Source of the DNA: Gammaproteobacteria bacterium
GTDB lineage: Bacteria; Pseudomonadota; Gammaproteobacteria; Tethybacterales; Persebacteraceae
DNA: 64,000 bases
Direction of reading: 5' to 3'
Assembly (NCBI GenBank): GCA_965221835.1
Contig: OZ244916.1
Location: 1,785,643-1,849,642, forward strand
A program made the translations under genes and the position numbers. This document shows, in pieces, positions 14,601 through 50,696 of the stretch (the stretch's first letter is position 1; every line of letters starts with the position of its first letter). The notes under the pieces were generated by a model. That model did not search any database and was not told the DNA's origin. It saw only the letters and a list, made by a program, of their open reading frames with translations.

Positions 14601-15193
14601 CTGACGAGTATGTTATCGCTACATTTCCTTCCAAAAATTTGTCTATTGAAAATTTTCCGGCGGTGAAAAAATATTTGCAATCTTTCGGCGACCGTTTAGA
14701 GCAAAGCGGGCGTCCGGGTTGCCGCAAGAAAAGCGCGCATGCGTGGTTTGAAACACAGGACGCAGTCGCGTATTATCCGGAATTTGAAAAAGAAAAATTG
14801 ATTTGGACAGACATCGCCCAAGCCGGACGGTTTTTCTATGACACCGAAAAACTGTACCCGATGGCAAGCGGGTTTGTAATGACCGGAGAAGATATTCAAT
14901 ATCTTCTCGCCGTTCTTAACTCGCGCTTGATCACTTGGTATATGCCAAATGTCGCCGTGAATCTTGGCGATAGCGGGCTTCGATGGAAAAAGATATATGT
15001 GGAAAAACTCCCAATCCCGCAAATTCCCAAAGCGGAACAACGCCCGTTCATAGAGTTGGCACAAAAAATCACCGCCGCCAAAGCAGCAAACCCCGCCGCC
15101 GACACCCACGAATGGGAATCCGAAATAGACCACCGCGTCTACAAACTCTACAACCTAACCAAAAAAGAAATCGCCATAATAGAGGCGGAATGA
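11606..15193 (+). CDS. MmeI/Eco57I-family type IIG-like N6-adenine DNA methyltransferase with N-terminal PD-ExK nuclease-like domain and C-terminal TRD (1195 aa)
   Basis: N-terminal D-x10-ELK (GDIESFLFVAVELK). Motif X FYTPREVVDYM. Motif I DPAAGSGAF. Motif IV IGNPPYVQ. Long C-terminal region. Confidence 0.85.
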   Translation: MEKTMNDNLLHKTKNALAECIRPAENFAAAAENLLNALGYESDRKHVGGNDSVRDFVRDFPAPQAETKTESEFVRAAKSARIIFQYTGEEISKSQNMFGATFNEGDIESFLFVAVELKSGDYARGKYAEFAREINKRFGMPTVVLFRTADGADKLSLAFVGRRAHKTDSARDVLEKVSLLRNINCNKPHRGHLDILLQLSLQNRLEWMSRNSKEKNFAGLLAAWLDELNTDALNKRFYGELLSWFERANQKICFPANLQNKREDWTIRLITRLLFVWFVKEKNLVAEDLFYKSQICPLLKNGANPTNDSYYRVVLQNLFFATLNTPIKDRKFSEGGRDAHRDFSRWRYAAEIANDKCKEKLKQLFAQTPFINGGLFDCLDGYDSPASAKNAGREGGEERTDYFSESYYKDSRIKDKLSVPDSLFFAENGLLSIFQKYKFTVEENTPIEQEVALDPELLGRVFENLLAFYNPETRENARKQTGSFYTPREVVDYMTRESVAECLAAKTGADGDKTRALLDYAAPADHSFSAAEVKSLVRAISEIKIFDPAAGSGAFPMGVLHLLTLALSRLDSQNAEWHELQKNRAQKDAAETFHRADKSERGERLDEINEVFSRYSDSDFGRKLFLIQNSIFGADIQPVACQISKLRFFISLAIEQKRDANAENFGIKPLPNLETRFIAADSLIKIGGRGQGALKSEAAAKLERDLAANRERHFNATARKTKLHCKNKDEELRKKLAAELKKTSGFDNEDAGRIAVWNPYDQNAAAKWFDAEYMFGVADGFDIVIGNPPYVQLQRDGGRLANLYAPQNYESFARTGDLYMLFYERGLQLCASGGGLMFITSNSWLRANYGANLRGVLARHNPRLLINMGANVFENVSVSVNILGVQNAPNRNELLANDFVRTGDFPPSEWHSIAPKNKDGWAIVSASENTLRAKIEQAGTPIKNWNVRMFFGIKTGYDKAFLIDAATKHRLCAEDPGSAEIIKPTIRGRNIGRYFYESADEYVIATFPSKNLSIENFPAVKKYLQSFGDRLEQSGRPGCRKKSAHAWFETQDAVAYYPEFEKEKLIWTDIAQAGRFFYDTEKLYPMASGFVMTGEDIQYLLAVLNSRLITWYMPNVAVNLGDSGLRWKKIYVEKLPIPQIPKAEQRPFIELAQKITAAKAANPAADTHEWESEIDHRVYKLYNLTKKEIAIIEAE

Positions 15194-15196
15194 CCG
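15155..15196. repeat. direct repeat A (3' end of the MTase gene); second copy at 16248-16287
   Basis: ctaaccaaaaaagaaatcgccataatagaggcggaatgacc vs ctaaccaaagagggaatcgccataatagaggcggaatgacc (38/41 identical). Confidence 0.75.
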
Positions 15197-15388
15197 CATC
15201 CAAACCGAACGCGGCGCGGTGATAAAACTGAAAAAACGGGAAGAAATTCGTTCCGCATTTTCGCTGTTATTTGAGCAATCATGCGGGACTTATCAAAATC
15301 GCTATGCAGGAAAGTGTAGATGCGTGGGACTCTGGTGGAATGGCAAATTGATGTATAATTGCGCCGCAACCATTGCAGGAGGTAAAAA

Positions 15389-15715
15389 ATGAAAATATCC
15401 ATCGCCAAAGATTTTTCGGATGTGCCTATCGGGCGTGCCCGGTCGGACGGCGACTATACCGGCGAGGCGTTTCGGGAGGATTGGCTCGTTCCGAAACTGC
15501 GGAAGGCATCGGCGAACGATCCCTTAATCATCAATTTGGACGGCGCCGAGGGGTATCCTTCGTCGTTCCTGGAAGAGGCATTCGGAGGGCTGGTGCGAAA
15601 CGGATACACCGCCGCCGATCTGCACAAACTCTTGAAAATAGAGGCGGGTAGCGGCTATAAAACCTACCGGGATATCATCTGGGATTACATCAAAGCGGCG
15701 GATTCTCTCGATTAA
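15389..15715 (+). CDS. DUF4325 (STAS-like) small protein
   Basis: Strong RBS AGGAGG. Sequence pattern DFSDVPIGRARSDGDYTGEAFRE...LDGAEGYPSSFLEEAFGGLVR matches the DUF4325 family. Confidence 0.6.
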   Translation: MKISIAKDFSDVPIGRARSDGDYTGEAFREDWLVPKLRKASANDPLIINLDGAEGYPSSFLEEAFGGLVRNGYTAADLHKLLKIEAGSGYKTYRDIIWDYIKAADSLD

Positions 15716-16155
15716 TGATGTCGCCTCACATTGTCCAGGCGGTTGTGCTGGTTCTGTGCGTTATCATTACTTTTGTTTTTAACGCGATATTGCAGCATCG
15801 GCTTTTGCATCGGCAAGGCAGGGAAAAAATTATTGATGCTTTGCTGCAATTGGTGGAAGAACAAAAGCAGTTTTACGCCGCCTATTGGGAAAAAGACGCC
15901 GCCGATGGCGCAGTGTCCGCATCCATAAACGAGACGATGCAGCAAACCCGATTTGATGCGCTGTTGGAGTTTGCCGGACGGAAATACAAATTCCGCAATA
16001 TAAACGACATTAATCGTCAGTACAGGAAATTCTGCAAAACGGCAACCGGCGACAACTTTGGCGAAAAAAACAGGGCGGCGAATACCGAAAAAGCGCGGCA
16101 TATTCATGCCATTGCGAACCAAATATACATCATTCTTTTGGAAAACAAAGTGTAG
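15715..16155 (+). CDS. hypothetical membrane protein (1 N-terminal TM helix), translationally coupled to the DUF4325 gene
   Basis: TAATG overlap with upstream gene. N-terminal hydrophobic segment AVVLVLCVIITFVFNAIL. Confidence 0.5.
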   Translation: MMSPHIVQAVVLVLCVIITFVFNAILQHRLLHRQGREKIIDALLQLVEEQKQFYAAYWEKDAADGAVSASINETMQQTRFDALLEFAGRKYKFRNINDINRQYRKFCKTATGDNFGEKNRAANTEKARHIHAIANQIYIILLENKV

Positions 16156-16169
16156 GGACGCAGTGCCGC

Positions 16170-16234
16170 AAAACTCCGTTTTATATCCCGTTTCCGCGCC
16201 GTTTAATTCGGGGCGGTTGCCGGTTTCGGGGTTG
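16170..16234. repeat. direct repeat P' : duplicated 5' end of pip (copy of 17422-17486)
   Basis: aaaactccgttttatatcccgtttccgcgccgtttaattcggggcggtt..cggtttcggggttg is identical apart from 2 nt to the pip start region. It encodes SVLYPVSAPFNSGRL in an out-of-context position. Confidence 0.8.
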
Positions 16235-16247
16235 TATTTTCTACAAT

Positions 16248-16287
16248 CTAACCAAAGAGGGAATCGCCATAATAGAGGCGGAATGAC
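16248..16287. repeat. direct repeat A' (second copy of the MTase 3' end)
   Basis: See 15155-15196. Confidence 0.75.
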
Positions 16288-16321
16288 CAACAACAAAATC
16301 ACCAGCGAAGCGTTTGCTGCG

Positions 16322-16861
16322 TTATTCCCCGCTACCGAGATGTTCCTTGTAGCGTCTTATGAAATCAAGAAATTCCGGCAGAAATTCCTTTTTTTGCTTC
16401 TCATAATCGGCGTCAGAATCGGACGCCGGTTTTGCCACTTTTTCTTTCGCGTCATTCCTGCCGGGACCCCGGAACACCTCGCGCAATAATATGCCGTACA
16501 GCACGATAAAACTAAGGAACGCGCCCGAAACCAGCAACGCTTGCGCCACAGGATGAATCATTTTGATAATATCGGCTGGTTGCATAAAAACGATAAAAAC
16601 GAATGGGAATATCACCCAAGGCGCGATTAGCGTAATGACGATGCTGAAAAACCGAAACCAATAATATTGACGGGCGACAATTTGATTGTGTTCGGTAGTT
16701 GCCTTGTCTCGCTCCTCGGAGTTCTGATTGCGCGCCTCTTCGCGCTCAAAAAACTTCAACATTTTGCCCAGCATCTTCATTTCTTCCTGCCGACGCTCGG
16801 CGTCGTTGAGCATTCCGGCGGACTCGCTGCCAAGTTCGTGATGATTTTTTTCGCCGATCAC
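16322..16861 (-). CDS. membrane protein (2-3 TM), candidate toxin partner of the Panacea-domain gene
   Basis: Hydrophobic core FRFFSIVITLIAPWVIFPFVFIVFMQP...LVSGAFLSFIVLYGILL. ATGA overlap with the upstream Panacea gene. Confidence 0.5.
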   Translation of the reverse strand: MIGEKNHHELGSESAGMLNDAERRQEEMKMLGKMLKFFEREEARNQNSEERDKATTEHNQIVARQYYWFRFFSIVITLIAPWVIFPFVFIVFMQPADIIKMIHPVAQALLVSGAFLSFIVLYGILLREVFRGPGRNDAKEKVAKPASDSDADYEKQKKEFLPEFLDFIRRYKEHLGSGE

Positions 16862-17346
16862 GACAGATCCTTAATCAATTTTTCGTAGTATTCCTTGATG
16901 ATTTCGTTAGGAATCGTGCCGAAATATTGATCTTTGCACTGATCCCACGGCGTGCCTTCGCGGTGTGTTAAATCCGAAAGCGAGAATGCGCCCAAACGCG
17001 AATACCGTTCGTAAACTTTGCTTACGATGTCCGCTTCATCTTCGTTGAGTTTGGTCGTATAGTCCGGAAACTCGCCGAATTCCGGGTCGTACGGACGCGC
17101 CTTGTTTTTGATGACAAACTGCGGCGCGAACGCGCGATATACTTCTGGAATGACCGGTCCGAATTTCCACGCTTGCACCTGATGGCGAATCAGCGGCTTG
17201 CCGGTGTAGCCGAGAGTCCAGCCGTGCGCCAGATATACATATTTTACCAGCGGCATAATCGTCAGCCGCTTTTTCGCGGCGCGCGCTTTGTCGACAAAAA
17301 TGTTCGCAATCGCACGCGAATCATGTCCCTTTTTTCCGAATAGCAT
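16858..17346 (-). CDS. Panacea-domain (DUF4065, SocA-like) antitoxin-family protein
   Basis: LTIMPLVKYVYLAHGWTLGYTGKPLIRHQVQAWKFGPVIPEVY resembles the DUF4065/Panacea N-terminal core. Confidence 0.55.
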   Translation of the reverse strand: MLFGKKGHDSRAIANIFVDKARAAKKRLTIMPLVKYVYLAHGWTLGYTGKPLIRHQVQAWKFGPVIPEVYRAFAPQFVIKNKARPYDPEFGEFPDYTTKLNEDEADIVSKVYERYSRLGAFSLSDLTHREGTPWDQCKDQYFGTIPNEIIKEYYEKLIKDLS

Positions 17347-17414
17347 TGTTATTTCACCTTTCTGTATAATTATTCAGATTTTATCATATTTTCGCCCGCC
17401 GTTATAATCGGCGA

Positions 17415-18374
17415 ATGTCTGAAAACTCCGTTTTATATCCCGTTTCCGCGCCGTTTAATTCGGGGCGGTTGGCGGTTTCGGGGTTGCATTCGGTGGCGTT
17501 TGCGGAGTATGGAAATTCGCGGGGGATTCCGGTTGTTTATTTGCATGGCGGACCGGGCGGCGGCTCTTCGCCTTCGCAGGCGGCGTTTTTTTGTCCGCAA
17601 AAGTTTCGCGTTTTGTTGTTTGATCAGCGGGGTTGCGGCAGGTCTTTGCCGCATGCGGAGTTGCGCGAAAACACGACTTGGGATTTGGTTGCAGATATGG
17701 AAAAGTTGCGTGCGCATCTCGGCATTAAAAAATGGTTGGTGTGCGGCGGGTCGTGGGGAAGTGCGTTGGCGTTGGCGTATTCGCAAAAACATCCCGCCCG
17801 TTGTTTGGGAATGATTTTGCGCGGCATTTTTACTTTGCGGCGGGCGGAGTTGTTGTGGTTTTATCAAGAGGGTGCGAGTTGGATTTTTCCGGAGTTGTGG
17901 GCGGATTTTATCGCACCGATTCCGCCTGCCGAACGCGGCGATTTGCTTTCGGCGTATCATCGCCGATTGACTGGAAAAAACCGGGCGGAAATGAATCGGT
18001 GTGCGATTGCGTGGAGCAAATGGGAGGCGGCGACATTGTCGTTTGCGCGAAATGAAAAACGCGTTCGCGAATTTTCCGCGCCGCTTTTTGCGAAGGCGTT
18101 TGCGCGAATTGAATCGCATTATTTTGTTCACGGCGGATTTTTTGCGCGGGATGGACAACTGATTGCGGATGCGCAAAAACTTGCGGGCGTGCCGGGCGTT
18201 ATCATACAAGGGCGATACGATATTATTACGCCGACAAAAACCGCGTTTGATTTGCATCGCAACTGGCCGGGGTCGCGTTTGGAAATCGTTCCCGATGCCG
18301 GACACGCCGCCGACGAACCGGGAATCGCCGCCGCAATTCGCAAAGCCGCAGACGCGTTTGCGGAGAAATTTTAA
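17415..18374 (+). CDS. pip: proline iminopeptidase (S33)
   Basis: GIPVVYLHGGPGGG, GGSWGSALALAY nucleophile elbow, 319 aa. Confidence 0.9.
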   Translation: MSENSVLYPVSAPFNSGRLAVSGLHSVAFAEYGNSRGIPVVYLHGGPGGGSSPSQAAFFCPQKFRVLLFDQRGCGRSLPHAELRENTTWDLVADMEKLRAHLGIKKWLVCGGSWGSALALAYSQKHPARCLGMILRGIFTLRRAELLWFYQEGASWIFPELWADFIAPIPPAERGDLLSAYHRRLTGKNRAEMNRCAIAWSKWEAATLSFARNEKRVREFSAPLFAKAFARIESHYFVHGGFFARDGQLIADAQKLAGVPGVIIQGRYDIITPTKTAFDLHRNWPGSRLEIVPDAGHAADEPGIAAAIRKAADAFAEKF

Positions 18375-37588: not shown

Positions 37589-37609
37589 AAACTAAAATGA
37601 AAAATCATT

Positions 37610-39265: not shown

Positions 39266-39430
39266 ATTTTTTTTGATTTTCCGCGTGTTTGCGGCATTTT
39301 GATTATCTACCAAATGATTCCGTATATCTACAAAATGCACACCGAAGGGGATATTTAATGGCATAATTGCGAGGCGGGGAAAAGGATTTTCGCCGCATTT
39401 TTTAATCATTATCAAAAAACAAGGAGAAAA

Positions 39431-39940: not shown

Positions 39941-39944
39941 CAAA

Positions 39945-39980
39945 AATCGGCGGGGATTCCATGTTCCGCCGTTTTATTTA
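39945..39980 (+). terminator. rho-independent terminator (family hairpin)
   Basis: tcggcggggattccatgttccgccg + T-rich. Confidence 0.65.
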
Positions 39981-40003
39981 CAAAACCGAAAGGAAAAATT
40001 ATT

Positions 40004-41008
40004 ATGAAAATCAAATCTATTATTTTGCCGCTGTTTGCGGTTTTTGCGTTGATAGTTTCGCCGTCTGCTTTTACCGATGAAGGCGATGAAGTCCATCAAG
40101 GGCTTTTTGCCAATCCGTTGACGCACGCCTCTGTGCACGGCAATTTGGCGGAAGTTAAGCGGTTGCTTGCGGCGGATGCAAATCCGAATGAGGCGAATGA
40201 TTACGGTACTACGGCTTTAATGTGGGCGACAAGCAAAGGACATGCCGAAGTTGCCGAGTTGCTATTGTCGGCAGGGGCTAATCCGAATGCGGCGAATATT
40301 TACGGCTTTACGGCTTTGCATGATGCAAAATGGGGACATGCCGAAGTTGTCGAGGTTTTGTTGGCGGCGGGGGCGAATCCGAATGCGGAGAATAATGTCG
40401 GCGAGACGGCTTTGATAGTTGTTGTAAGAGAAGGATATACCGAAATGGTAAAAATGATGTTGGCGGCGGGGGCGAATCCGAATGCGGCAACTAATAACGG
40501 CAGGACGGCTTTGATGGGGGCGGCATGGAAAGGACATGCTGAAATTGCCGAGATGTTATTATCGGCAGGGGCGAATCCGAATGCGGCAACTAATAACGGC
40601 AGGACGGCTTTGATGGGGGCGGCAAGGAACGGACATGCCGAAGTTGCGAAAATGCTGTTGTCGGCGGGGGTAGATGTTAATGCGGCGATTGATGAAGGTA
40701 CAACGGCTTTGATGCTGACTGCATGGAAAGGACATGCTGAAATTGCCGAGATGTTATTATCGGCAGGGGCGAATCCGAAGGTGACGGATAAATCGGGCAA
40801 AACGGCTTTGATGTGGGCGGTAAGAAGAGGAAATGCCGAAGTTACCGAGATATTGTTGGAAGAGGATACGTATTTGTATGCAACAGATAAGGAAGGCAAA
40901 AACGTTTTGGATTATGCAAACGAAGAATGGTCGGAAGCGAAAACGCAAGAAGAAGCATTGGAGTATAAGCGGATTGTAGAAATGTTGCGGGCGGCGGGGG
41001 CGAAATAA
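40004..41008 (+). CDS. secreted ankyrin-repeat protein (signal peptide MKIKSIILPLFAVFALIVSPSAF), ends MLRAAGAK
   Basis: 8 ANK repeats including two near-identical units (NNGRTALMGAAWKGHAEIAEMLLSAGANPNAAT x2). Confidence 0.8.
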   Translation: MKIKSIILPLFAVFALIVSPSAFTDEGDEVHQGLFANPLTHASVHGNLAEVKRLLAADANPNEANDYGTTALMWATSKGHAEVAELLLSAGANPNAANIYGFTALHDAKWGHAEVVEVLLAAGANPNAENNVGETALIVVVREGYTEMVKMMLAAGANPNAATNNGRTALMGAAWKGHAEIAEMLLSAGANPNAATNNGRTALMGAARNGHAEVAKMLLSAGVDVNAAIDEGTTALMLTAWKGHAEIAEMLLSAGANPKVTDKSGKTALMWAVRRGNAEVTEILLEEDTYLYATDKEGKNVLDYANEEWSEAKTQEEALEYKRIVEMLRAAGAK

Positions 41009-41012
41009 CAAA

Positions 41013-41048
41013 AACCGGCGGGGATTTCGTGTCTCCGCCGTTTTTTTA
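41013..41048 (+). terminator. rho-independent terminator (family hairpin)
   Basis: ccggcggggatttcgtgtctccgccg + T7. Confidence 0.75.
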
Positions 41049-41067
41049 ATAATCAAAAAGGATAACA

Positions 41068-41289
41068 ATGAATAAAATTCTGAAATTCATCCTTTCGCCG
41101 GTTATTATTCCGACTGCTTTTGCGAAATCGGCGAAAAACAGCAAGGTGATGCGGGTGTTGCTATATCTATACTTGCTTGTTTTCGTTTTGACTACTCCGT
41201 ATGCATGGCTTTTCGGGCTTATTCCATTATTTATTCATTTGTTATTCTTTCTGCATAAAGTAATGATGAAGGTCATTAACGAAGAATGA
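41068..41289 (+). CDS. small hydrophobic membrane protein (73 aa, 2 TM)
   Basis: ORF followed by a family terminator hairpin at 41293-41327. Confidence 0.45.
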   Translation: MNKILKFILSPVIIPTAFAKSAKNSKVMRVLLYLYLLVFVLTTPYAWLFGLIPLFIHLLFFLHKVMMKVINEE

Positions 41290-41292
41290 CAA

Positions 41293-41327
41293 AACCGGCG
41301 GGGATTTCGAATCCTCGCCGTTTTTTA
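41293..41327 (+). terminator. rho-independent terminator (family hairpin)
   Basis: ccggcggggatttcgaatcctcgccg + T6. Confidence 0.7.
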
Positions 41328-41350
41328 CAAAACCAAAAGGAAAAATCATT

Positions 41351-41416
41351 ATGAAAATCAAATCTATTATTTTGTCGCTGTTTGCCGCCGTGTTTGCGGC
41401 GGGGTGTGGGCGGTGA
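41351..41416 (+). pseudogene. frameshifted lipoprotein signal-peptide segment (MKIKSIILSLFAAVFAAGCGR-stop) upstream of, and out of frame with, the next ankyrin gene
   Basis: Conserved family start plus lipobox AAGC terminates after 21 codons. The ANK ORF continues in another frame from 41404/41416. Confidence 0.55.
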
Positions 41417-42597
41417 TGGCGTCTTTTGTAGGTAAAATTTTACATTCTATGGTGGGGAATGGATTAACACCATTCGCTCAACTAATGCTTTGGCTGGGTA
41501 CGAATCCGAATGCGGCAGTGGATGACGGATTTACGGCTTTGATGTCGGCGGCATTTGACGGAAATGCCAAAATTGCCAAGTTGCTGTTGACAGCAGGGGC
41601 GAATCCGAATGCGGTGACTAATGACGGCAGGACGGCTTTAATGGCGGCGGCAATCAAAGGACATGCCGAAGTTGCGAAAGTGTTGTTAGACGGCAAGGCG
41701 AATCAGAATGCGGCGGCTAATAAAAGCGTGACGGCTTTGATGGTGGCGGCAGGGGAAGGACATACCGAGGTTGCGAAAGTGTTGTTAGACGGCGGGGCGA
41801 ATCTGAATGCAGCGAATGATGACGGCTATACGGCTTTGATGTTGGCGGCAGTGGAAGGACATGCCGAAGTTGCGAAAGTTCTGATTGCGGCGGGGGCGAA
41901 TCCGAATGCGGCGAATGATAGTGGCAATACGGCTTTGCATTTGGTGGCAGTTAAAGGGCATGCTGAAGTTGCGAAAATACTGTTAGCGGCGGGGGCGAAT
42001 CCGAATGCGGCGAGAGATGGCGGCTGGACGGCTTTAATGTTTGCGGCAATTGACGGACATGCCGAAGTTGCGAAAGTATTGTTAGACGGCGGGGCAAATC
42101 CGAATGCGGCGGGTAATAACGGCGAAACAGCTTTGGGAGGGGCGGCAAAAATAGGACATGCCGAAGTTGCTAAAATTCTATTATCGGCGGGGGCGAATCC
42201 GAATGCAGTGGACAACGACAGCTGGACGGCTTTGAGGTGGGCAGCATATAAGGGACATACCGAAGTTGCGAAAATTCTGTTATCGGCGAGGGCGAATCCG
42301 AATGCGGCGAATGATTACGGCGATACGGCTTTGATACTTGCATCAATATCAGGACATTCCGAAGTTGCGAAAATTCTGATTGCGGCGAAGGCGAATCCGA
42401 ATGCGACGGATAATAACGGCAGGACGGCTTTGATTCAGGCAGTAGATAAAGGACATGCCGAAATTGTAAAGATATTGATAGCGAGTGGAGCGGAAGTTAA
42501 TCAGCGTACGTCCAAAGAATTCACAGCTTTGGGTATAGCGAAAGCACTCGGCTTTTCCAAGATTGAACGCATTTTGCGGGCGGCGGGGGCGAAGTAG
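41416..42597 (+). CDS. ankyrin-repeat protein (11 repeats), ends ERILRAAGAK; signal peptide disrupted by frameshift
   Basis: ORF track start 41404 is GTG. First ATG is 41416. Repeats TALMxAAxxGHAEVAKVLLDGGANPNAA throughout. Confidence 0.75.
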   Translation: MASFVGKILHSMVGNGLTPFAQLMLWLGTNPNAAVDDGFTALMSAAFDGNAKIAKLLLTAGANPNAVTNDGRTALMAAAIKGHAEVAKVLLDGKANQNAAANKSVTALMVAAGEGHTEVAKVLLDGGANLNAANDDGYTALMLAAVEGHAEVAKVLIAAGANPNAANDSGNTALHLVAVKGHAEVAKILLAAGANPNAARDGGWTALMFAAIDGHAEVAKVLLDGGANPNAAGNNGETALGGAAKIGHAEVAKILLSAGANPNAVDNDSWTALRWAAYKGHTEVAKILLSARANPNAANDYGDTALILASISGHSEVAKILIAAKANPNATDNNGRTALIQAVDKGHAEIVKILIASGAEVNQRTSKEFTALGIAKALGFSKIERILRAAGAK

Positions 42598-42680
42598 CAT
42601 AATCTAACTTTGGCGGCGGTCGCTTTGTTTCATCGGCGGGCGATTGCTTTTTATTCATTCTATCCGAAAGGAGAATTACG

Positions 42681-43364
42681 ATGAACGAAAACGACACAAA
42701 TTTATTTAATGCGATTAAACTCAACAAAGATCCGGAAGAGGTCAAGCGTCTGATTAAGGCGGGGGCGAATCCGAATGCCGTGGATGATGACGAATTGACG
42801 GCTTTGATGTGGGTGGCGTGGGGCGGAGGAGGCAAAGAAGAGAAAGTAAGATTGCCCGACAATACTCGGAATTGCGTAGGGCGTATCGGTTGGACTATTT
42901 TGCCCGCAGATCCCAGAAAAGAAGATGCCGAAATAGCCGAAGTATTGTTATCGGAGAAAGCGGAGCCCAATGCGGCAAGAAGTGATGGCATCACAGCATT
43001 GATGATGGCAGCGTATAACGGACATGCCGAAGTTGTCAAGATGTTGTTGTCGGCGGGGGCGAATGTGGATGCGGCGAATGATGACGGCGTGACGGCTTTG
43101 ATGGCGGCGGCACAAGAAGGGTATACCGAAGTTGTCAAAATTTTGATTGCGGCGGGTGCAAATCTAAATGCGGCGGATAAAGACGGCTGGACGACTTTGA
43201 TGTTTGCGGCACAAAAAGGGCATACCGAAGTTGCTGAAATTCTGTTGTCGGTGGAGGCGAATCCGAATACGGAAAATAAATACGGCAGGACGGCTTTGGA
43301 TATTGCGGAAGAAGAGGGGCATGACGAATTCATCCGCATTTTGGAAGAGGCGGGGGCGGAATAA
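42681..43364 (+). CDS. ankyrin-repeat protein (no signal peptide)
   Basis: GITALMMAAYNGHAEVVKMLLSAGANVDAANDDGVTALMAAAQEGYTEVVKILIAAGANLNA. AAGGAG RBS. Confidence 0.8.
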   Translation: MNENDTNLFNAIKLNKDPEEVKRLIKAGANPNAVDDDELTALMWVAWGGGGKEEKVRLPDNTRNCVGRIGWTILPADPRKEDAEIAEVLLSEKAEPNAARSDGITALMMAAYNGHAEVVKMLLSAGANVDAANDDGVTALMAAAQEGYTEVVKILIAAGANLNAADKDGWTTLMFAAQKGHTEVAEILLSVEANPNTENKYGRTALDIAEEEGHDEFIRILEEAGAE

Positions 43365-43368
43365 CAAA

Positions 43369-43404
43369 AACCGGCGGGGATTTCGTGTCCTCGCCGGTTT
43401 TTTG
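43369..43404 (+). terminator. rho-independent terminator (family hairpin)
   Basis: ccggcggggatttcgtgtcctcgccgg + T6. Confidence 0.75.
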
Positions 43405-43709
43405 CGGGGATTTGGGGGTTTTGTTCTGAATTCGCAATTTGCTCTTGATATTTGTCGGGCGGGGCGGTTGGGGATTTGGGGGGATTTTCGCGTTCGCGAG
43501 AATGGAATTGGGGTTGCCGAAAAATGTTTATGCGTTGCGGGCGTTTTTGCGTCCGAATTGGCGGATTTTTCGCGCAAATAAAGCGTTTTTTTCCGATTCC
43601 GGCGGGGCAAATCGTGCGGGCGGCGATTATCCGGCGGCGGCATTTTTCTTAAAACGGAGTCGGCGGACGGACGGGCGTGCATTAAACAGGCGATTCGTAT
43701 TAAAATTGA

Positions 43710-43766
43710 AAAATGACAATGCTAAATAACATTCTTTCCATTTTGATTTGGTTTCCGATTGCGGGC
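43710..43766. repeat. 57-bp direct repeat: duplicated 5' end of nuoM (second copy 46076-46132 is the real gene start)
   Basis: aaaaatgacaatgctaaataacattctttccattttgatttggtttccgattgcggg is identical at both positions. Brackets the RM1 insertion. Confidence 0.85.
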
Positions 43767-43807
43767 GTCCGAAACGGCGGGGGCGTTAAATCAGTTGCGG
43801 GGACGAG

Positions 43808-45187
43808 ATGAAAATTGACATTGAAAAATTGAAACGCGAGTTGTATGAAATGGATGCCTTGCGCAAAAAAGATGATGTGCAGTGCGACACGGCGGGGCGT
43901 ATTGAGCCGCAATATTTTGACGGCGATTTGTCGGAGTTGGGATTGTCGCCGAAAGTCGCCGAGGCGATGCGCAAAGAGTTGGGCGACAAAAAATTGTATC
44001 AACATCAGGCGGATGCGATTCGGGCATCAATGCGGGGCGACAATGTCGTTTTGGAATCCCCGACCGCAAGCGGCAAAACGCTATCATTCACCGCCCCGAT
44101 GCTGGAAAGCGTTTGCGGCGGCGGCGGCTGGCGAATTATTTGCGGCGAATGTATTTCCGTCTTAAAACAATTGCCGGACAAATCCGCCAATTTAATTTTC
44201 GCCGACCCGCCGTACAATTTGCAATTAAAAAACGAGTTATACCGCCCGAACATGACTCGCGTGGACGGCGTTTCCGATTCGTGGGACAAGTTTGCATCTT
44301 TTGCGGAATATGATATTTTTTGCGATTCGTGGTTGCGCGAATGTCGCCGCGTTTTGGCGGATGACGGCGCGATTTGGGTAATCGGTACTTATCACAACAT
44401 CGGGCGTTTGTCGCGTCTTATGCAGGATTTGGGTTTTTGGATGCAAAACGATGTGATTTGGCACAAGACGAATCCGATGCCGAATTTTCGCGGCGTGCGG
44501 TTTACGAATGCAACTGAAACTTTATTGTGGGCGAAAAAATCGGAAAAATCACGCGCGGTTTTCAATCACAAAAAAATGAAAGCGGAAAACGGCGGCAAAC
44601 AAATGACGAATGTTTGGCGTTTTCCGATTTGCGGCGGGGCGGAGCGTTTGCGCGATGCGGCGGGAAAGAAATTGCATTCAACACAAAAACCGGAATCGCT
44701 TTTGCGGCGAATCATTCTCGCAACAAGCCGCCCGGGCGATGTCGTATTGGATCCTTTTTCCGGCAGCGGCACGACGGTCGCGGTCGCGCGTTCTTTGCAA
44801 AGAATCGGAATCGGCATAGAACGCGAAAAAAAATATATCACAATTTCGGCAAAACGAATCGCCGCAATTGTACCGGAGGAAATTCCCGCCGAAGATTCCG
44901 CCCCCGCCCCTCGCCGCGTACCGTTTTCGGAATTGATTGCGCGCGGATTAATTAAACCCGGCGAAACTTTGTATTCAAGCAACGGCAAATCACGCGCGCA
45001 AGTTTTGCAAAACGGCGACATTAAAATTAATGGCGCGATTAACGCCGAAGGTTCCATCCACAAAATCGGCGCGAAAGCCGCGGGGACTCCGTCTTGCAAC
45101 GGCTGGAATTTTTGGTACGCGAAAACTGACGGCGGCAAAGTGTTGCTGAACGATTTGCGCGAACGGGCGCGAAAAACGGAGGCGTAA
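43808..45187 (+). CDS. beta-class DNA methyltransferase (DPPY...FSGSGTT order) carrying an in-frame N-terminal ~98-aa fragment of a DEAD/DEAH-box helicase; probable MTase start at ATG 44101
   Basis: Residues 60-98 LYQHQADAIRASMRGDNVVLESPTASGKTLSF = helicase Q-motif plus Walker A. From MLESV onward it is a typical ~360-aa MTase: IICGECISVLKQLP, LIFADPPYNL, LDPFSGSGTT. Confidence 0.8.
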   Translation: MKIDIEKLKRELYEMDALRKKDDVQCDTAGRIEPQYFDGDLSELGLSPKVAEAMRKELGDKKLYQHQADAIRASMRGDNVVLESPTASGKTLSFTAPMLESVCGGGGWRIICGECISVLKQLPDKSANLIFADPPYNLQLKNELYRPNMTRVDGVSDSWDKFASFAEYDIFCDSWLRECRRVLADDGAIWVIGTYHNIGRLSRLMQDLGFWMQNDVIWHKTNPMPNFRGVRFTNATETLLWAKKSEKSRAVFNHKKMKAENGGKQMTNVWRFPICGGAERLRDAAGKKLHSTQKPESLLRRIILATSRPGDVVLDPFSGSGTTVAVARSLQRIGIGIEREKKYITISAKRIAAIVPEEIPAEDSAPAPRRVPFSELIARGLIKPGETLYSSNGKSRAQVLQNGDIKINGAINAEGSIHKIGAKAAGTPSCNGWNFWYAKTDGGKVLLNDLRERARKTEA

Positions 45188-45190
45188 TTT

Positions 45191-46084
45191 ATGAATTATG
45201 ATCAATTTTCCCGCCTTATTAACCGTACTGTTTTCTCCGATTCCAAGGTGAAACTGTTGCGGAGCATCGCTCGTCAACCGGAGAATTTTGTCGGACTTTT
45301 CCGACCGACGACGCCGGAGGTGAAAATTGCCCAAAATTTATCTCAATCTCATGAGATTAAGTTCGGCTACGCATTTGAGGAATTGGTGCGCCTGTATCTC
45401 AAAGAAAACGGATGTCAAATATTTGATTCTTCTATTGTCATTGATGGCAAAAGAAAAGATTTGGATATTTATTTTCGCAAGGATGGTAAGGATTATCTCG
45501 TGGAGCAAAAGACGCGGGATAACCACGACTCCACGAAAAAGCTCGGGCAAGCCGATGACTTTGAGAAAAAATTGGTAGCGGTGTCCGATGGCGGAAAAAA
45601 AGCGGTGTGCGGCGTTCTATTCTTTTTAGACCCCGGTATGTCCAAAAACAAAATATTCTATGAAGAGCGTCTGCCCGAGATTACACAGCGACACGGACTC
45701 GAGACGCGCCTCGTATATGGCGGGGAATTTTTTAATATGTTGTCGTTGGATGTTTGGGATGAGATTGAAAAGTATCTCATTCGGTGGCGCGCGGAATTGC
45801 CGGGATTCCCGGAATTTAACTATGACCGAAATCCGGAGGAAAGTTTTAACGAAATCAAAGACATGAGTCCCGCTGATTTTTGTAAAATTTTCACGCACGA
45901 AGAAATAGGCAAACACATTCTGCCGATTCTCTTTCCGGAGCAAAAAACGCTTAAAATGTTGGTTGACTATTGGGCGTGCAAACCCGAAGGCGTTCGGGCG
46001 CGCAAATCTGACGGCGTTCGCATTTCCCGGTTAATAAATGAACGAATTTCGGAGATGTTGCGGGCGGCGGGGACGAAAAAATGA
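45191..46084 (+). CDS. putative type II restriction endonuclease (PD-(D/E)xK)
   Basis: D-x13-EQK pattern (KDLDIYFRKDGKDYLVEQKTRD). Position immediately 3' of the MTase. C-terminal codons share ttgcgggcggcgggg-cgaaa with the ank gene 3' ends. Stop overlaps nuoM ATG (ATGA). Confidence 0.55.
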   Translation: MNYDQFSRLINRTVFSDSKVKLLRSIARQPENFVGLFRPTTPEVKIAQNLSQSHEIKFGYAFEELVRLYLKENGCQIFDSSIVIDGKRKDLDIYFRKDGKDYLVEQKTRDNHDSTKKLGQADDFEKKLVAVSDGGKKAVCGVLFFLDPGMSKNKIFYEERLPEITQRHGLETRLVYGGEFFNMLSLDVWDEIEKYLIRWRAELPGFPEFNYDRNPEESFNEIKDMSPADFCKIFTHEEIGKHILPILFPEQKTLKMLVDYWACKPEGVRARKSDGVRISRLINERISEMLRAAGTKK

Positions 46085-47565
46085 CAATGCTAAATAACAT
46101 TCTTTCCATTTTGATTTGGTTTCCGATTGCGGGGGGGGTGGTGGTGTTGGTTTGCGGGGCGGCGGGGGTTTGTCCGTACCGAATTAAGGCGGGCGGGATT
46201 GCGGTATCGGGTGCGGCGTTTTTGATTTCGTTGCCGCTGTTTTTTATGTTTGATAGCGGCACGGCGGCGATGCAATTTGTTGAAGATGCTGCGTGGATAG
46301 ACCGGTTTAATATCCGCTACGGGTTGGGCGTGGACGGCTTTTCAATGCTGATGATTTTGCTGAATACTTTTACGACCGTGCTTGTTTTGGCGGCGTGCTG
46401 GCAATCGGTGCAGACGCGGGTTGCAGGTTATGTGGCGGCATTTTTGATGATGTCGGGGCTGACAAACGGCGTTTTTGCGGCGACCGATGCGGCGTTGTTT
46501 TATGTTTTTTGGGAGGCGACTCTCATTCCGCTGTTTATTGTCATCGGCGTTTGGGGCGGCGAACGGCGCGTTTATGCGGCGATTAAATTCTTTTTGTATA
46601 CGCTTGTCGGTTCGTTGCTGATGCTGATTGCGCTTTTGTATTTATACAACGAAACCGGCGATTTTTCTATCGCATCTTTTCACGATGTGCCGATTTCCAT
46701 GACTGCACAAACATTTTTATTTTTCGCATTTTTGGCGGCGTTTGCGGTAAAAGTGCCGATGACGCCTGTGCATACTTGGTTGCCGGATGCGCATGTGGAG
46801 GCGCCGACAGGCGGTTCTATTGTGCTGGCGGCGGTGATGTTAAAACTCGGCGCGTACGGATTTTTGCGTTTTTCGTTGCCGGTCGCCCCCGATGCGAGTG
46901 TGGAATTCGCGTGGCTGATTATCGCGTTGTCTTTGGCGGCGATTGTTTATATCGGCTTGGTTGCGCTGGTGCAAGATGATATGAAAAAACTCATCGCCTA
47001 TTCGTCGGTTGCGCACATGGGATTTGTAACGCTTGGATTTTTTCTGTTTGACGAACTCGGAATGAAAGGCGGAATCGCGCAAATGGTGTCGCACGGTTTT
47101 GTATCGGGCGCGATGTTTTTCGGCGTGGGCGTGGTATATGACCGGATGCATACGCGCAAAATTGCGGACTACGGCGGCATTGCAAACACGATGCCGAAAT
47201 ATGCGGCGTTTATGATGTTGTTTGCGATGGCGAATGCGGGATTGCCCGGCACGAGCGGATTTGTCGGCGAGTTTATGGTGATTTTGGCGGCGGTGCGCAC
47301 CGATTTATGGATAGGATTGTTGTGCGCAACGACTTTAATTACCGGCGCGGCGTATACTTTGTGGATGTACAAACGCGTCTTTTTCGGCGAAATCGCAAAC
47401 GATGCGGTGCGCGAAATGCGCGATGCAACACCGCGCGAAATATTAATAATGTCGCTTTTCGCCGCGCTGATAATGCTGATGGGATTGTGGCCGTTTCCAT
47501 TTCTGGAAACGCTGGACGCAACAACCGCGAATCTACTCGCCCATGTGCGGGAGGGGAAGTTGTGA
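46081..47565 (+). CDS. nuoM: NADH-quinone oxidoreductase subunit M
   Basis: 14-TM antiporter-like subunit. MTMLNNILSILIWFPIAGG..., WLPDAHVEAPTGGS. Confidence 0.92.
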   Translation: MTMLNNILSILIWFPIAGGVVVLVCGAAGVCPYRIKAGGIAVSGAAFLISLPLFFMFDSGTAAMQFVEDAAWIDRFNIRYGLGVDGFSMLMILLNTFTTVLVLAACWQSVQTRVAGYVAAFLMMSGLTNGVFAATDAALFYVFWEATLIPLFIVIGVWGGERRVYAAIKFFLYTLVGSLLMLIALLYLYNETGDFSIASFHDVPISMTAQTFLFFAFLAAFAVKVPMTPVHTWLPDAHVEAPTGGSIVLAAVMLKLGAYGFLRFSLPVAPDASVEFAWLIIALSLAAIVYIGLVALVQDDMKKLIAYSSVAHMGFVTLGFFLFDELGMKGGIAQMVSHGFVSGAMFFGVGVVYDRMHTRKIADYGGIANTMPKYAAFMMLFAMANAGLPGTSGFVGEFMVILAAVRTDLWIGLLCATTLITGAAYTLWMYKRVFFGEIANDAVREMRDATPREILIMSLFAALIMLMGLWPFPFLETLDATTANLLAHVREGKL

Positions 47566-48551
47566 ACAACGCGACCGCCGTTTCCTTTTTTAATGATTCG
47601 CGGAATGCGGCGGCGTTCGCGCCGTCCGACAACAAGCGGGCGGACGGGCGATATTACACGCGCGGCGATCCGTTTTCGCATGCGGCGTTTTGCGAATGGG
47701 CGCGCGTTGCCGGACTGCCGCAAGCGAAAGTTTTGGAACCGTTTGCCGGCGCGAACAATTTAATTAAGACGTTGCGCGCTGCCGGTTTGTGCGAAACATT
47801 CGCGGCGTTTGATATTTTGCCCGGCGACAAATCTGTCAAACGGCGCGATACGCTGGCGGATTTTCCGCGCGGCTTTAATGTCTGCATTACAAATCCGCCG
47901 TGGCTGGCGCGCAACTCTGCGACCCGCCGCGGATTGCCGTATCCGCAAACTCGCTACGACGATTTGTACAAACATTGTCTCGCCGAGTGTCTCGCGCATT
48001 GCGGTTATGTTGCCGCGTTGGTGCCGGAATCGTTTATTCGCGGCGGTTTGTTTACGCCGCGCCTTTCGGCGTTTGTTTCGCTGAACAACGGCATGTTCGC
48101 CGATACCGAACATCCGGTCGGACTCGCGCTTTTTGTCCCGCGCGCGCTCAATACTATTTTATATTGCGGCGCGACAAAAATCGGCGAGTTGCGGCGGTTG
48201 CGCGAATATTGCCCGCCCGCATCCCGCGATGGCGGCGGCGTTTCGTTCAATTCGCCGGACGGCAATTTGGGATTGATTGCGTTGGATAATAATTTTTGCG
48301 CGAGCATTCGTTTTTGCGAAGCGGCGGAGTTGGACGGTTACGAAGTGCGACAAAGTTGCCGCGCGATTACCAAAATTCGCGTTCCCGGACGCCCGCAAAT
48401 CGGCGCGTATAATCGTTTTATCAATTCCTTTCGCAAAAACACGATGGATGTTTTTTTAACGGCATATCGCGGTTTGCGCAAAGACGGATTTTACCGCCGC
48501 CGTTTGGATTACGCGCTAGCGCGGGATATTATTTCTTATGTCGGATTCTAA
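47562..48551 (+). CDS. gamma-class N6-adenine DNA methyltransferase (FxGxG then NPPW)
   Basis: Motif I VLEPFAGANN, motif IV VCITNPPWLA. GTG start overlapping the nuoM stop (GTGA). ORF track start 47307 overlaps nuoM and is rejected. Confidence 0.75.
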   Translation: MNNATAVSFFNDSRNAAAFAPSDNKRADGRYYTRGDPFSHAAFCEWARVAGLPQAKVLEPFAGANNLIKTLRAAGLCETFAAFDILPGDKSVKRRDTLADFPRGFNVCITNPPWLARNSATRRGLPYPQTRYDDLYKHCLAECLAHCGYVAALVPESFIRGGLFTPRLSAFVSLNNGMFADTEHPVGLALFVPRALNTILYCGATKIGELRRLREYCPPASRDGGGVSFNSPDGNLGLIALDNNFCASIRFCEAAELDGYEVRQSCRAITKIRVPGRPQIGAYNRFINSFRKNTMDVFLTAYRGLRKDGFYRRRLDYALARDIISYVGF

Positions 48552-49242
48552 AATGCCGCCGCCGGATTGGGAGGGAGAAGCGATGCGCAAAATGTGGCGC
48601 AAAAACGCCGCTGCTGTGCCGTCCGAAGTTGAGACAGGCGACAGCGGGATGATGAAAAAAATCGCGACTTATTGCGATAACTTCGGTTATGCTGCGCGGG
48701 AAGTTATTGCCAAAATTTCCGGCGATAAAATGTTTGCCGCGCACTTTGCCAAAAATCCTGGTACTCAAGGAATTCACGAACAAATCGCTGCCGATTATTT
48801 ACAAAAAATTTCCCTGGTCGGAAATTTTGAGATTTTGCCGAGAAGCGGAAAGGATGCGCTGTTTATCAATGCGCGAGGCGAATTGTTAAAGCGCAAAGAC
48901 AAATCGCAAACGAGTGCGCAAGATTCTAAATCGCTGGATTTTTGTTGGAAAACCGGCGGATTTGTCTGCTACGCGAGTCACAAGTATACGAAAGAATCGG
49001 GCGGGGCGCAAGACCATCAATTTCGCGATCAAAAACGGTTTCTGGAAAATTTTCGCGAACATAATAATCCGCGGGCGGCGTGTTTTGCGATTTGCGATGG
49101 CGCATTTTACACCGAAGAAAAAATGCAGGAGTTGGAAAGTGTGACGCGCAAAAAACCGCCGATAAGTTTCGCCGTACATATTGAAGATGTCGCCGAAAAT
49201 TTGCAAAAACTTGCGGCATTAAAGGATAATTCGCTACAATGA
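48538..49242 (+). CDS. hypothetical protein, candidate restriction endonuclease partner of the preceding MTase
   Basis: Overlaps MTase 3' end by 14 nt. No clear catalytic motif (possible D-x12-SHK). Assignment by context only. Confidence 0.4.
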   Translation: MSDSKMPPPDWEGEAMRKMWRKNAAAVPSEVETGDSGMMKKIATYCDNFGYAAREVIAKISGDKMFAAHFAKNPGTQGIHEQIAADYLQKISLVGNFEILPRSGKDALFINARGELLKRKDKSQTSAQDSKSLDFCWKTGGFVCYASHKYTKESGGAQDHQFRDQKRFLENFREHNNPRAACFAICDGAFYTEEKMQELESVTRKKPPISFAVHIEDVAENLQKLAALKDNSLQ

Positions 49243-50696
49243 CCGCCGCTGAGTTGATGATTTCCGCTGCGAGTGTGGAGATATTTTTGTTTGTTGCCGG
49301 GTGCGCGGTGTTGTGCGCGGATTTGTTTTTGCCCGATTCGTATCGCGCGCGGTTGCATTGGGCGGTGATTGCCGCATTGTTGGTTGCAGCCGCCGCCGTT
49401 GCGGGATCGGTTGCGGATGCGCCGATTGCGGCGTTGCACGGATTTTTTGTTTCCGACCCGCTGGCGGCAATTCTCAAAACAACCGCATTGTTGGCGGTCG
49501 CCGGGTCGCTGGCATTTTCGCGCGGTTATTTGCAGTCGGCGGGAATGTTGCGCGGCGAATTTCATGCGCTGGCTTTGTTTGCTGCTTTGGGAATGGCGGT
49601 GATGATTTCGGCGGGGCATTTTCTTTCGCTGTATCTCGGATTGGAATTGATGTCGCTGTCGTTGTATGCGATGATTGCGATGCGGCGCGAAAGTGCGCAT
49701 GCGGTGGAAGCGGCGATTAAATATTTCGTGTTGGGCGCGTTGGCGTCGGGTTTATTTTTGTATGGCGTATCGGTAATTTACGGCGCGACCGGCGGAAAAT
49801 TGTACATTGCCGAAGTCGCAGAAGCCGCGGCGGCGGGCGGCGAATCGTCCATGGCGCTTTCGCTCGGATTGGTGTTTGCGTTGGCGGGTTTGGCATTCAA
49901 ACTCGGCGCCGCGCCGTTTCACATGTGGCTGCCGGATGTTTACGAAGGTGCGCCTGCGCCGATGACTTTGTTTGCGGCGGCGGCGCCGAAAGTTGCGGCG
50001 ATGGCGATGATGTTGCGCGTGTTGACGGATGCGTTGCCGGCGTTGCATGGCGAATGGCGCGATATGCTGATTGTGTTGGGGCTGGCGTCTTTGGCGGTGG
50101 GCAACATTACCGCTATCGCGCAAACCGATATTAAACGAATGCTGGCTTATTCGGCGATTGCGCACAGCGGATTTATGGTGTTGGGCGTGTTGGCGGGCGA
50201 TGCGGACGGCGTGGCGGCGGCGGTGTTTTATGTTGCCGCGTACGCGCTGATGACGGTCGGCGGATTCGGCGTGGTGGTTTTGCTGGCGCCGGACGGACGC
50301 GAAAATGGCGCGCTGGAATCGTTAAAAGGAATGTCGTCTCGCAACATTCTCGTCGCCGGCGTACTCGCTGCGCTGATGTTGTCTATGGCGGGCGTGCCGC
50401 CGGTTGTGGGATTTGTCGCCAAACTGACGATTTTGCAGGCGGTGGCGGATGCGGGATTGGTGTGGCTGGCGGTGGCGGCGGTCGTATTTTCGGCAATCGG
50501 CGCGTTTTATTATTTGCGCGTCATCAAATTGATGTTTTTTGATCCGCCGCCGGATGGTGCTGCCGCTGTGCGTTTGTCGCCGGCGGGGGGTGCGATGGTT
50601 GCGTTGGTCGGATTTTTGATTTTGATATTGGGAATATTTCCCGGTGCGCTTTTGTCGGCATGCGAAGCGGCGGCAAAAATCGCGCTAACAACATGA
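49239..50696 (+). CDS. nuoN: NADH-quinone oxidoreductase subunit N
   Basis: 14-TM. LYLGLELMSLSLYAMIAMRRES...KLGAAPFHMWLPDVYEGAPAP. Confidence 0.92.
   Translation: MTAAELMISAASVEIFLFVAGCAVLCADLFLPDSYRARLHWAVIAALLVAAAAVAGSVADAPIAALHGFFVSDPLAAILKTTALLAVAGSLAFSRGYLQSAGMLRGEFHALALFAALGMAVMISAGHFLSLYLGLELMSLSLYAMIAMRRESAHAVEAAIKYFVLGALASGLFLYGVSVIYGATGGKLYIAEVAEAAAAGGESSMALSLGLVFALAGLAFKLGAAPFHMWLPDVYEGAPAPMTLFAAAAPKVAAMAMMLRVLTDALPALHGEWRDMLIVLGLASLAVGNITAIAQTDIKRMLAYSAIAHSGFMVLGVLAGDADGVAAAVFYVAAYALMTVGGFGVVVLLAPDGRENGALESLKGMSSRNILVAGVLAALMLSMAGVPPVVGFVAKLTILQAVADAGLVWLAVAAVVFSAIGAFYYLRVIKLMFFDPPPDGAAAVRLSPAGGAMVALVGFLILILGIFPGALLSACEAAAKIALTT

Follow-up and report, generated by a model that had tools for sequence, protein, structure and literature searches.

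The stretch of DNA analysed here, hereafter the window, comprises 64,000 nucleotides of contig OZ244916.1 from a gammaproteobacterium of the family Persebacteraceae, and the subject of the analysis is a restriction-modification (RM) gene pair in it that lies directly upstream of nuoM, between two copies of the start of nuoM. The two copies form a 57-nt direct repeat of 100% identity, which was detected both by repeat finding and by an independent exact-match scan. Each copy consists of the 4 nt that lie 5' of the nuoM ATG followed by the first 53 nt of the nuoM coding sequence; the upstream copy is denoted nuoM', and the downstream copy is the start of the intact gene. The length of the repeated word makes its chance recurrence within 64 kb impossible. 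A first-pass annotation of the sequence had already noted the repeat, which it placed at 43710 and 46076; the repeat itself is exact as described, and these positions are each one base off (43709 and 46077). The 2,311 bp of inter-repeat DNA contain two open reading frames (ORFs), the first carrying the methyltransferase (M1) and the second the restriction endonuclease (R1). They lie on the same strand with a spacer of 3 nt between them, and the TGA of R1 (46082-46084) overlaps the ATG of nuoM (46081-46083). The coordinates of these and other features are collected in Table 1.

The repeat-flanked gene pair at nuoM

The body of M1 resembles CcrM, a beta-class N6-adenine methyltransferase. It aligns over its whole length with the CcrM structure 6pbd (E 2.8e-119, residues 13-359), and the DPPY and FSGSGTT motifs are present in its sequence. 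The best NCBIfam model for M1 is likewise that of CcrM, yet the score of 482 lies below the equivalog cutoff of 830. The first 103 codons of the ORF do not belong to the methyltransferase, and the first-pass annotation is to be corrected in this respect: they are a fragment of a DEAD-box helicase, fused in frame, with 55% identity to the N-terminus of a 762-aa DEAD/MZB helicase in the related locus L089. The L089 helicase, which matches the DruE, SngC and BrxH models of defence helicases, sits between the methyltransferase and nuoM, with the 3' end of the methyltransferase directly preceding its ATG. In the window ORF, homology to methyltransferases begins at residue 104, across a run of GGC, at what corresponds to about codon 18 of M1. 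When the helicase fragment was used as a query, the matches were confined to helicase calls that were short, split or frameshifted and that lay in unrelated defence contexts.

The 42 nt between nuoM' and the helicase fragment, denoted M1', are probably the 3' remnant of a second methyltransferase copy. They agree at 19/22 nt with the 3' end of the methyltransferase of L001, a locus from a related species; the score of this match was reached in 0/1000 shuffles, and among non-self matches in the window it ranks first. In one frame M1' reads LNQLRGR where L001 has LNHLRER. It is strongly unlike the 3' end of the resident methyltransferase, and nearer that of L001. A 32-codon ORF also begins at the duplicated nuoM start, and its stop codon overlaps the ATG of the fused methyltransferase ORF (Table 1); it might be speculated that this putatively translated ORF keeps translational coupling to the fusion methyltransferase.

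R1 matches the NCBIfam model NF045832, which describes HpyAIV-family type II restriction endonucleases, with 201.9 bits against a cutoff of 160 and over profile positions 1-268 of 269. A Pfam scan of window R1 gave no match at E 0.01; PF09520 appears in the precomputed annotation of all R1 homologues. Residues D92, E105 and K107 are invariant in an alignment of 16 sequences that includes window R1, and these conserved residues, together with the profile match, indicate a catalytic core that is predicted to be intact. The native sequence of R1 extends to ...RISEM, where its homologues have RIxEM and a few unrelated residues, and the last eight residues of R1, LRAAGTKK, are derived from an ankyrin gene. 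The corresponding 24-mer, ATGTTGCGGGCGGCGGGGACGAAA, recurs with one mismatch at the 3' end of an ankyrin gene at 40982 (40982-41005, 23/24), with two mismatches at 38072 and with three at three more sites, and had no match in 100 shuffles. The ankyrin-like 3' end of the endonuclease reported in the first-pass annotation is thus borne out, as is its identification of a type II RM pair; the GC-rich genome that it took as background is not, the G+C content of the window being 52%.

CcrM and HinfI act on GANTC. Since M1 is CcrM-like and R1 belongs to the HpyAIV family, the best prediction for the target of the pair, as judged from sequence, is GANTC, the type of specificity that had been proposed at the outset. 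HpyAIV is named together with GANTC in methylome papers on H. pylori.

The nuoM structure recurs in two further assemblies of the same species, L081 (ERZ25072152, a 1.68-Mb contig at 464x) and L082 (ERZ25070530), which share about 98.3% identity with the window across 43363-47566 and contain both 57-nt copies unchanged. The duplication is therefore not an assembly artefact, and its presence in independent assemblies, on which the first-pass annotation had made its proposal depend, is established. Look-ups with the exact sequences of window nuoM, R1 and R2 (the endonuclease-like gene downstream of nuoM described below) gave no match, and the same-species contigs were reached solely through a 99%-identical endonuclease, P0001. 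A scan of Joint Genome Institute (JGI) metagenomes for the junction at copy 1 found none, and no extra duplicates of the nuoM 5' end or of the methyltransferase 3' end occur in nine related loci.

Upstream of copy 1, the last gene of an ankyrin array ends in a terminator hairpin at 43366-43402 (-26.6 kcal/mol, z -3.95), and the stretch between this hairpin and the repeat yielded no homology to the fetched loci, no Rfam family and no consensus promoter. No integrase, transposase or tRNA was seen near the RM pair, whose flanking ORFs are ankyrin and nuo genes. The window as a whole has no tRNA and no Rfam match, and no integrase domain was found among the ORFs scanned, a scan that included no search aimed at attC.

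Table 1. Positions of the features discussed, in window coordinates
Feature	Position	Strand	Remarks
Non-coding stretch 5' of repeat copy 1	43405..43708	+	after terminator hairpin of last ankyrin gene
Repeat copy 1 (nuoM')	43709..43765	+	4 nt upstream and first 53 nt of nuoM
32-codon ORF from duplicated nuoM start	43713..43811	+	translation MTMLNNILSILIWFPIAGVRNGGGVKSVAGTR followed by stop; TGA overlaps ATG (43808) of helicase-methyltransferase ORF
M1', probable 3' remnant of second methyltransferase copy	43766..43807	+	42 nt; likeness to L001 methyltransferase 3' end
Helicase-methyltransferase fusion ORF	43808-45187	+	PF01555 N6_N4_Mtase and PF18755 RAMA; DEAD-box match at residues 65-102
Helicase 5' fragment (helicase')	43808..44116	+	codons 1-103, fused in frame; PF00270 at residues 65-102
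M1 body, CcrM-like beta-class N6-adenine methyltransferase	44117..45187	+	without native first ~17 codons
R1, HpyAIV/HinfI-family type II restriction endonuclease	45191..46084	+	NF045832
Ankyrin-gene 3' tail in place of native R1 end	46055..46078	+	LRAAGTKK; 24-mer
Repeat copy 2	46077..46133	+	start of intact nuoM
Intact nuoM	46081-47565	+	PF00361
M2 of second RM-like pair	47562-48551	+	nuoM-nuoN slot; overlapping stops/starts
R2 of second RM-like pair	48538-49242	+	nuoM-nuoN slot; overlapping stops/starts
nuoN	49239-50696	+	after R2
pip locus as a whole	15144..17490	+	parallel case
Type IIG RM gene, 3' end	15144-15195		
Cassette A at pip	about 15205-16160		
pip', 5' fragment of pip	16170-16238		
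Copy of type IIG 3' end (type IIG')	16237-16288		
Toxin/SocA-Panacea antitoxin pair	16322-17346	-	
Intact pip	17415-18374		repeat at 17422-17490

The gene pair and its neighbours in related genomes

The nearest relatives of window nuoM are found in uncultured gammaproteobacterial metagenome-assembled genomes (MAGs), sea-cave MAGs among them, and a more distant one is found in Candidatus Tethybacter castellensis, of a sponge-symbiont lineage. At least five related genomes (L004, L083/L084, L085 and, with a remnant of the endonuclease, L087) carry the methyltransferase-endonuclease pair between nuoL and nuoM. The order nuoL, methyltransferase, endonuclease, nuoM, with stops and starts that overlap or abut, is seen in L004, L083 and L085, whose nuoM genes are respectively 70%, 83% and 77% identical to that of the window. 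In L087 (81%) the endonuclease is reduced to 80 aa; L086 and L089 (82% and 79%) keep the methyltransferase, which is followed by another gene, and in L088 the methyltransferase follows nuoL at the point where the contig ends. In the outgroups L005-L007 (63-64%), nuoM directly follows a nuoL-like gene and there is no homologue of M1 or R1. The identities of methyltransferase and endonuclease to their window counterparts drop in step with that of nuoM, and the methyltransferase tree mirrors the nuoM tree. This congruence and the shared nuoL-nuoM position imply that the pair was inherited vertically and that the repeat is not a record of its arrival.

In metagenomic loci that contain a more distant homologue of R1, the same methyltransferase is adjacent in 75/80 and precedes the endonuclease on the same strand in 73/80, while nuoM is near the R1 homologue in 0/80. 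The pair is a widespread and mobile one, which settled in the nuo genes in the present clade only. The RM pair is accordingly regarded as an old vertical resident of the nuoL-nuoM junction, derived from a single landing in the ancestor of this clade of sponge-associated gammaproteobacteria, and the proposal that it was newly inserted at nuoM fails. An RM-less allele with a single nuoM start, which that proposal had called for, does occur in part: L001 has one nuoM start and no endonuclease, but it retains an orthologue of the methyltransferase, which lies 2.4 kb upstream of nuoM with other genes between. Relatives closer to the window have the RM genes at the nuoM site without any repeat.

The methyltransferase is kept in every member of the clade with readable upstream sequence. 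Between it and nuoM lies what behaves as a slot for cassette exchange, in which unrelated genes are found between the same flanks: R1 or its 80-aa remnant, the 762-aa helicase of L089, an unknown 205-aa ORF (L086), a Schlafen-domain gene with two methyltransferases and an endonuclease (L003), or a reversed ankyrin gene with two ORFs (L001). The nuoM-nuoN junction is a second cassette slot. In the window it holds a second RM-like pair, in which M2 is a gamma-type methyltransferase with an NPPW motif and R2 is weakly Tsp45I-like, the Eco57I and Tsp45I matches falling below Pfam thresholds. Orthologues of this pair are also present at the junction in L001 and L085, Mrr is present there in L083 and follows nuoM in L002 and L003, and the junction is empty in L004 and L005. 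The same-species loci L081 and L082 retain a C-terminal remnant of R2 only: the pair is replaced there by ~217 nt of unrelated sequence followed by the last 100 codons of the endonuclease, read as a 176-aa ORF (L081 12372-12902).

The complex I genes are themselves split and interleaved in this clade, as follows from the position of nuoJ after accA and tilS rather than after nuoI in five relatives (L083, L085, L086, L087 and L089; tilS was not called in L089). The same five relatives have a conserved ORF of 123-127 aa between nuoJ and nuoK (L083 6130-6513, L085 6243-6623, L086 9318-9689, L087 7922-8299, L089 9309-9692), for which a Pfam scan of the L083 sequence gave no match.

Origin of the repeats at nuoM and pip

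The order of elements at nuoM is nuoM', M1', helicase' fused to M1, R1, nuoM. The inter-repeat DNA is thus a mosaic of at least three pieces and not the clean cassette supposed in the first-pass annotation. A piece of the downstream gene, nuoM', is joined to a piece of the upstream gene, M1', and such a permuted junction points to a tandem duplication, or to a circle integrated by one crossover, and not to a simple insertion.

A parallel case is found at pip, where the same duplication of a gene start had been noticed in the first-pass annotation and is confirmed: 50 nt of the pip 5' end are repeated exactly, and about 69 nt at 97%, and the copies bracket a toxin-antitoxin (TA) pair. Directly after pip' lies a ~52-nt copy of the 3' end of a type IIG RM gene (about 46/50 identical), that gene being located 2 kb further upstream. 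The window order is type IIG, cassette A, pip', type IIG', TA, pip, and the sister strain L093 has the simple form type IIG, TA, pip. The pip locus contains two alternative fillings of one slot in tandem, with the pip'-type IIG' junction between them, and the difference between the strains gives the polarity of the change. The sequences that recur at the junctions are in both loci the ends of the flanking genes (methyltransferase 3' and nuoM 5'; type IIG 3' and pip 5'), so that the ankyrin tail, which had been proposed as a handle for recombination, does not qualify as the recombination site. The module retained at both loci is an addiction module.

The reading that we hold, with moderate confidence, is that the repeat is the scar of alternative versions of the nuoM slot that were joined head to tail, the RM pair being the resident and not the newcomer. 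The alternative versions would have been joined instead of replacing one another, in the order A-version and nuoM', then M1' and helicase', then M1 from codon 18 to its end, R1 and nuoM. A piece of DNA that covered the slot and a short part of each flanking gene may have been closed into a circle, which then integrated through one crossover in nuoM; alternatively the slot may have been tandemly duplicated, or an equivalent unequal exchange may have occurred, and either route would give a direct repeat of the nuoM 5' end. Two further illegitimate joins would complete the structure, one of the helicase fragment to the methyltransferase at the GGC run and one of the ankyrin 3' tail to the endonuclease. 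Chromosomal RM systems are reported to be resistant to substitution by allelic DNA (PMC3874152). If the RM or TA module were cleanly replaced or deleted, the cell would die by post-segregational killing, recombinants that keep the module would survive, and deletion between the 57-bp repeats would be selected against in the same way.

One rival explanation is that of the first-pass annotation, in which a foreign methyltransferase-endonuclease cassette was inserted de novo into an RM-free nuoM 5' end with a 57-bp target duplication, using short handles such as the ankyrin tail. The locus has the formal attributes of an insertion with long target duplication, since a methyltransferase and an endonuclease lie within a 2.3-kb insert flanked by a repeat of more than 30 bp and no integrase, transposase or tRNA was seen nearby, and L001 has a single nuoM start and no endonuclease. 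This explanation is nevertheless very improbable: the pair is orthologous to the one that resides between nuoL and nuoM in relatives and diverges together with nuoM, a synteny that largely refutes insertion; L001 keeps the orthologous methyltransferase; what stands at the beginning of the insert is a remnant of a methyltransferase and a piece of a helicase, not a cassette boundary; and the endonuclease carries the ankyrin tail as a 24-nt patch, which is not a shared flank. Greater weight, though still that of an unlikely account, attaches to a purely intragenomic origin, in which a tandem duplication from the methyltransferase 3' end to position +53 of nuoM was followed by deletions and replacements in one copy, with no import of DNA. 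The same permuted junction would result, the identity of the 57-nt copies implies that both come from the nuoM of this species, and a plain tandem duplication of a gene start, a 145-nt unit present twice, is found elsewhere in the genome at 1786-2075. The strong difference between M1' and the resident methyltransferase 3' end, and its greater nearness to L001, speak against such an origin, as does the helicase, of which the window has no other copy. At pip, moreover, the cassettes of the two units are unrelated and the type IIG end and its duplicate disagree at 4 of about 50 positions, so that extra replacement steps would be needed.

Only a small chance is given to homology-facilitated illegitimate recombination upon uptake of linear DNA, by which a donor anchored in nuoM would have been joined illegitimately inside its anchor. 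A process with one homologous and one illegitimate end fits junctions of little or no homology, and many of the reported cases of long target duplication are in naturally competent species (PMC2853133). Two points speak against it: the usual outcome of such recombination is loss of recipient DNA and not a duplicated anchor, and the window has no over-represented 10- or 12-mers of the uptake-sequence kind beyond words from the ankyrin genes and GC repeats. That strain alleles were chimerically joined during assembly is exceedingly improbable. The window is probably derived from a metagenome and the tandem arrangement at pip has been seen only in the window, but the nuoM structure is identical in three assemblies, and the junctions join truncated and diverged pieces of a kind that graph errors would not create.

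Several observations weigh against the joining of alternative slot versions as set out above. The upstream partner that would be expected, nuoL and a full methyltransferase to the left of the A-version, is missing: nuoL, nuoJ and nuoK are absent from the window, and the region to the left of copy 1 is occupied by mfd, a LysE gene and the ankyrin array instead. The account thus requires one more rearrangement or several, and it may be conjectured that recombination among the ankyrin repeats moved the block. The ankyrin genes, moreover, terminate in strong hairpins, and no promoter was recognised, which is a further gap in the account. The nuoJ, nuoK and nuoL genes of this species were not located, there being no nuoL match on the 1.68-Mb contig and the three candidates opened proving to be from other species. 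No same-species genome with a single version of the nuoM slot was found, so that polarity is not given there as it is at pip. The score of M1' is 29 where the background maximum is 27, which is moderate support. The window contains 334 GANTC sites where 231 are expected; the motif is not under-represented, and this offers no support for restriction pressure at it. The last ~37 nt before copy 1 weakly resemble the region upstream of nuoM in L001, a score that 1/2000 shuffles reach; homology of this flank to L001 was considered and rejected, the resemblance not being separable from background and other places in the window scoring higher.

Known cases in which RM genes were inserted with a long duplication of the target (Furuta, Abe & Kobayashi 2010, PMC2853133) share with the present locus an endonuclease and a methyltransferase between direct repeats of host sequence longer than 30 bp, an insert shorter than 20 kb, the lack of a transposase, integrase or tRNA nearby and a single copy of the repeated sequence in a related genome, although the related genome here, L001, keeps the methyltransferase. 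They differ from it in that the RM pair is here an old resident and the inter-repeat DNA begins with fragments of the upstream gene and of an alternative cassette. The mechanism was left open in that work, and it is in the head-to-tail joining of alleles that the present proposal goes further. The E. coli hsd-mrr region (Sibley & Raleigh 2004, via PMC2853133) is similar in that varied defence genes lie between constant flanks in relatives. It is unlike the nuoM locus in that the flanks are here genes of an essential respiratory operon, with the cassettes packed in by overlapping stops and starts, and in that the methyltransferase flank is half of an RM system. The resistance of RM systems to allelic replacement (Handa et al. 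2001, via PMC3874152) resembles the present case in supplying the selective logic, by which cells that lose the RM system die and those that survive keep it.

The rearrangements in the present case are compact products with short illegitimate junctions, unlike those of Handa et al. in 2001, which were reportedly large and mediated by IS3; survivors in that work are said to have kept both the RM system and the incoming allele. Cassette-like variation between conserved flanks is also seen in the minimal mobile elements of Neisseria. Taken as an RM system, the pair is an unremarkable representative of a family already known. It shares with HinfI/HpyAIV and CcrM the end-to-end CcrM alignment, a score above the HpyAIV cutoff and the methyltransferase-to-endonuclease order of 73 of the 80 metagenomic relatives, and it differs from them in the helicase-derived N-terminal extension of 103 residues on the methyltransferase and, in the endonuclease, in a C-terminal extension of ~40 residues that is common to its subfamily and has an ankyrin-derived tip. 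The added value of the locus lies in the clue provided by the permuted junction and in the embedding of the slot in an operon.

These comparisons bear on how repeat-flanked RM genes are to be read, since such a pair may long have resided at its site, with repeats that testify to the shuffling of alleles and not to an arrival. Permuted junctions at two addiction-module loci suggest a testable route to RM long target duplications, for which no mechanism has been established. It is possible, and put forward only tentatively, that head-to-tail capture of alternative alleles is a general origin of the unexplained long target duplications at RM and TA modules, that the window holds two independent examples of it, and that the CcrM-like methyltransferase has undergone domestication within the operon of complex I, where it forms the constant flank of a landing pad for defence genes. 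Under this general model, allelic DNA entering a slot that contains an addiction module could not replace it cleanly without killing the cell; survival would be limited to products in which the incoming allele stands next to the resident one, these could arise from a circularised fragment by one crossover, and the diagnostic trace would be a junction of downstream gene to upstream gene next to one repeat copy. The clade of sponge symbionts exchanges defence genes inside an essential respiratory operon, beside a retained CcrM-like methyltransferase, and this has a bearing on how streamlined symbiont genomes keep and renew their defences.

Other features of the window

The type IIG RM gene upstream of the pip locus (11606-15193, Eco57I and TaqI_C domains) differs between the window and L093 only in an internal block of ~1 kb (13975-15029), which looks like a swap of the target-recognition domain. 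Directly upstream of it lies an ORF of 1123 aa (8224-11595), whose orthologue in L093 has PLD-nuclease and SNF2/helicase domains; this ORF and the type IIG gene may form one larger defence system.

The ankyrin array to the left of nuoM' (35559-43364) comprises at least eight ankyrin-repeat genes with a periodicity of 99 nt, and fits a host-associated lifestyle. Some of its genes share a near-identical 5' region and a product that starts with MKIKSIILPLF, stretches of 46-51 nt recurring exactly at 36085, 40001 and 41324, and several end in a conserved family of terminator hairpins. The content of the array is entirely different between strains.

Several short palindromes other than GANTC are extremely depleted in the window relative to Markov expectation (GGCC, 5 observed against 362 expected; TCGA, 27 against 297; ACGT, 23 against 140; GATC, 74 against 267), and AGNCT does not occur where about 37-49 occurrences are expected, depending on the model. 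This depletion suggests heavy, long-term restriction pressure at sites other than GANTC.

Further repeats occur outside the two main loci. Apparent duplications of gene starts at 18.43-18.60 kb and 25.93-26.04 kb were rejected as such, and are a different phenomenon: they are intergenic tandem repeats of 46-47 nt (18430-18600, plus strand, four copies; 25925-26040, minus strand, three copies) with the shared core TCTTCCATTYCCGTGAAC, which has 7 matches against 0 in shuffles. The tandem unit of ~145 nt at 1786-2075 includes the start of a minus-strand ORF (1389-1811), with 86 nt repeated exactly. An exact direct repeat of 61 nt (21836-21896 and 22303-22363) surrounds ~400 nt with an apparent small minus-strand ORF, and collinearity with the sister strain ends inside this interval; it is possibly a third repeat-flanked insertion. 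Finally, two distant intergenic regions, 22179-22261 and 58159-58241, have in common two exact repeats of 29 and 33 nt at the same spacing, one of them with a GC-rich hairpin-like motif, and the pair is probably a small dispersed repeat element.

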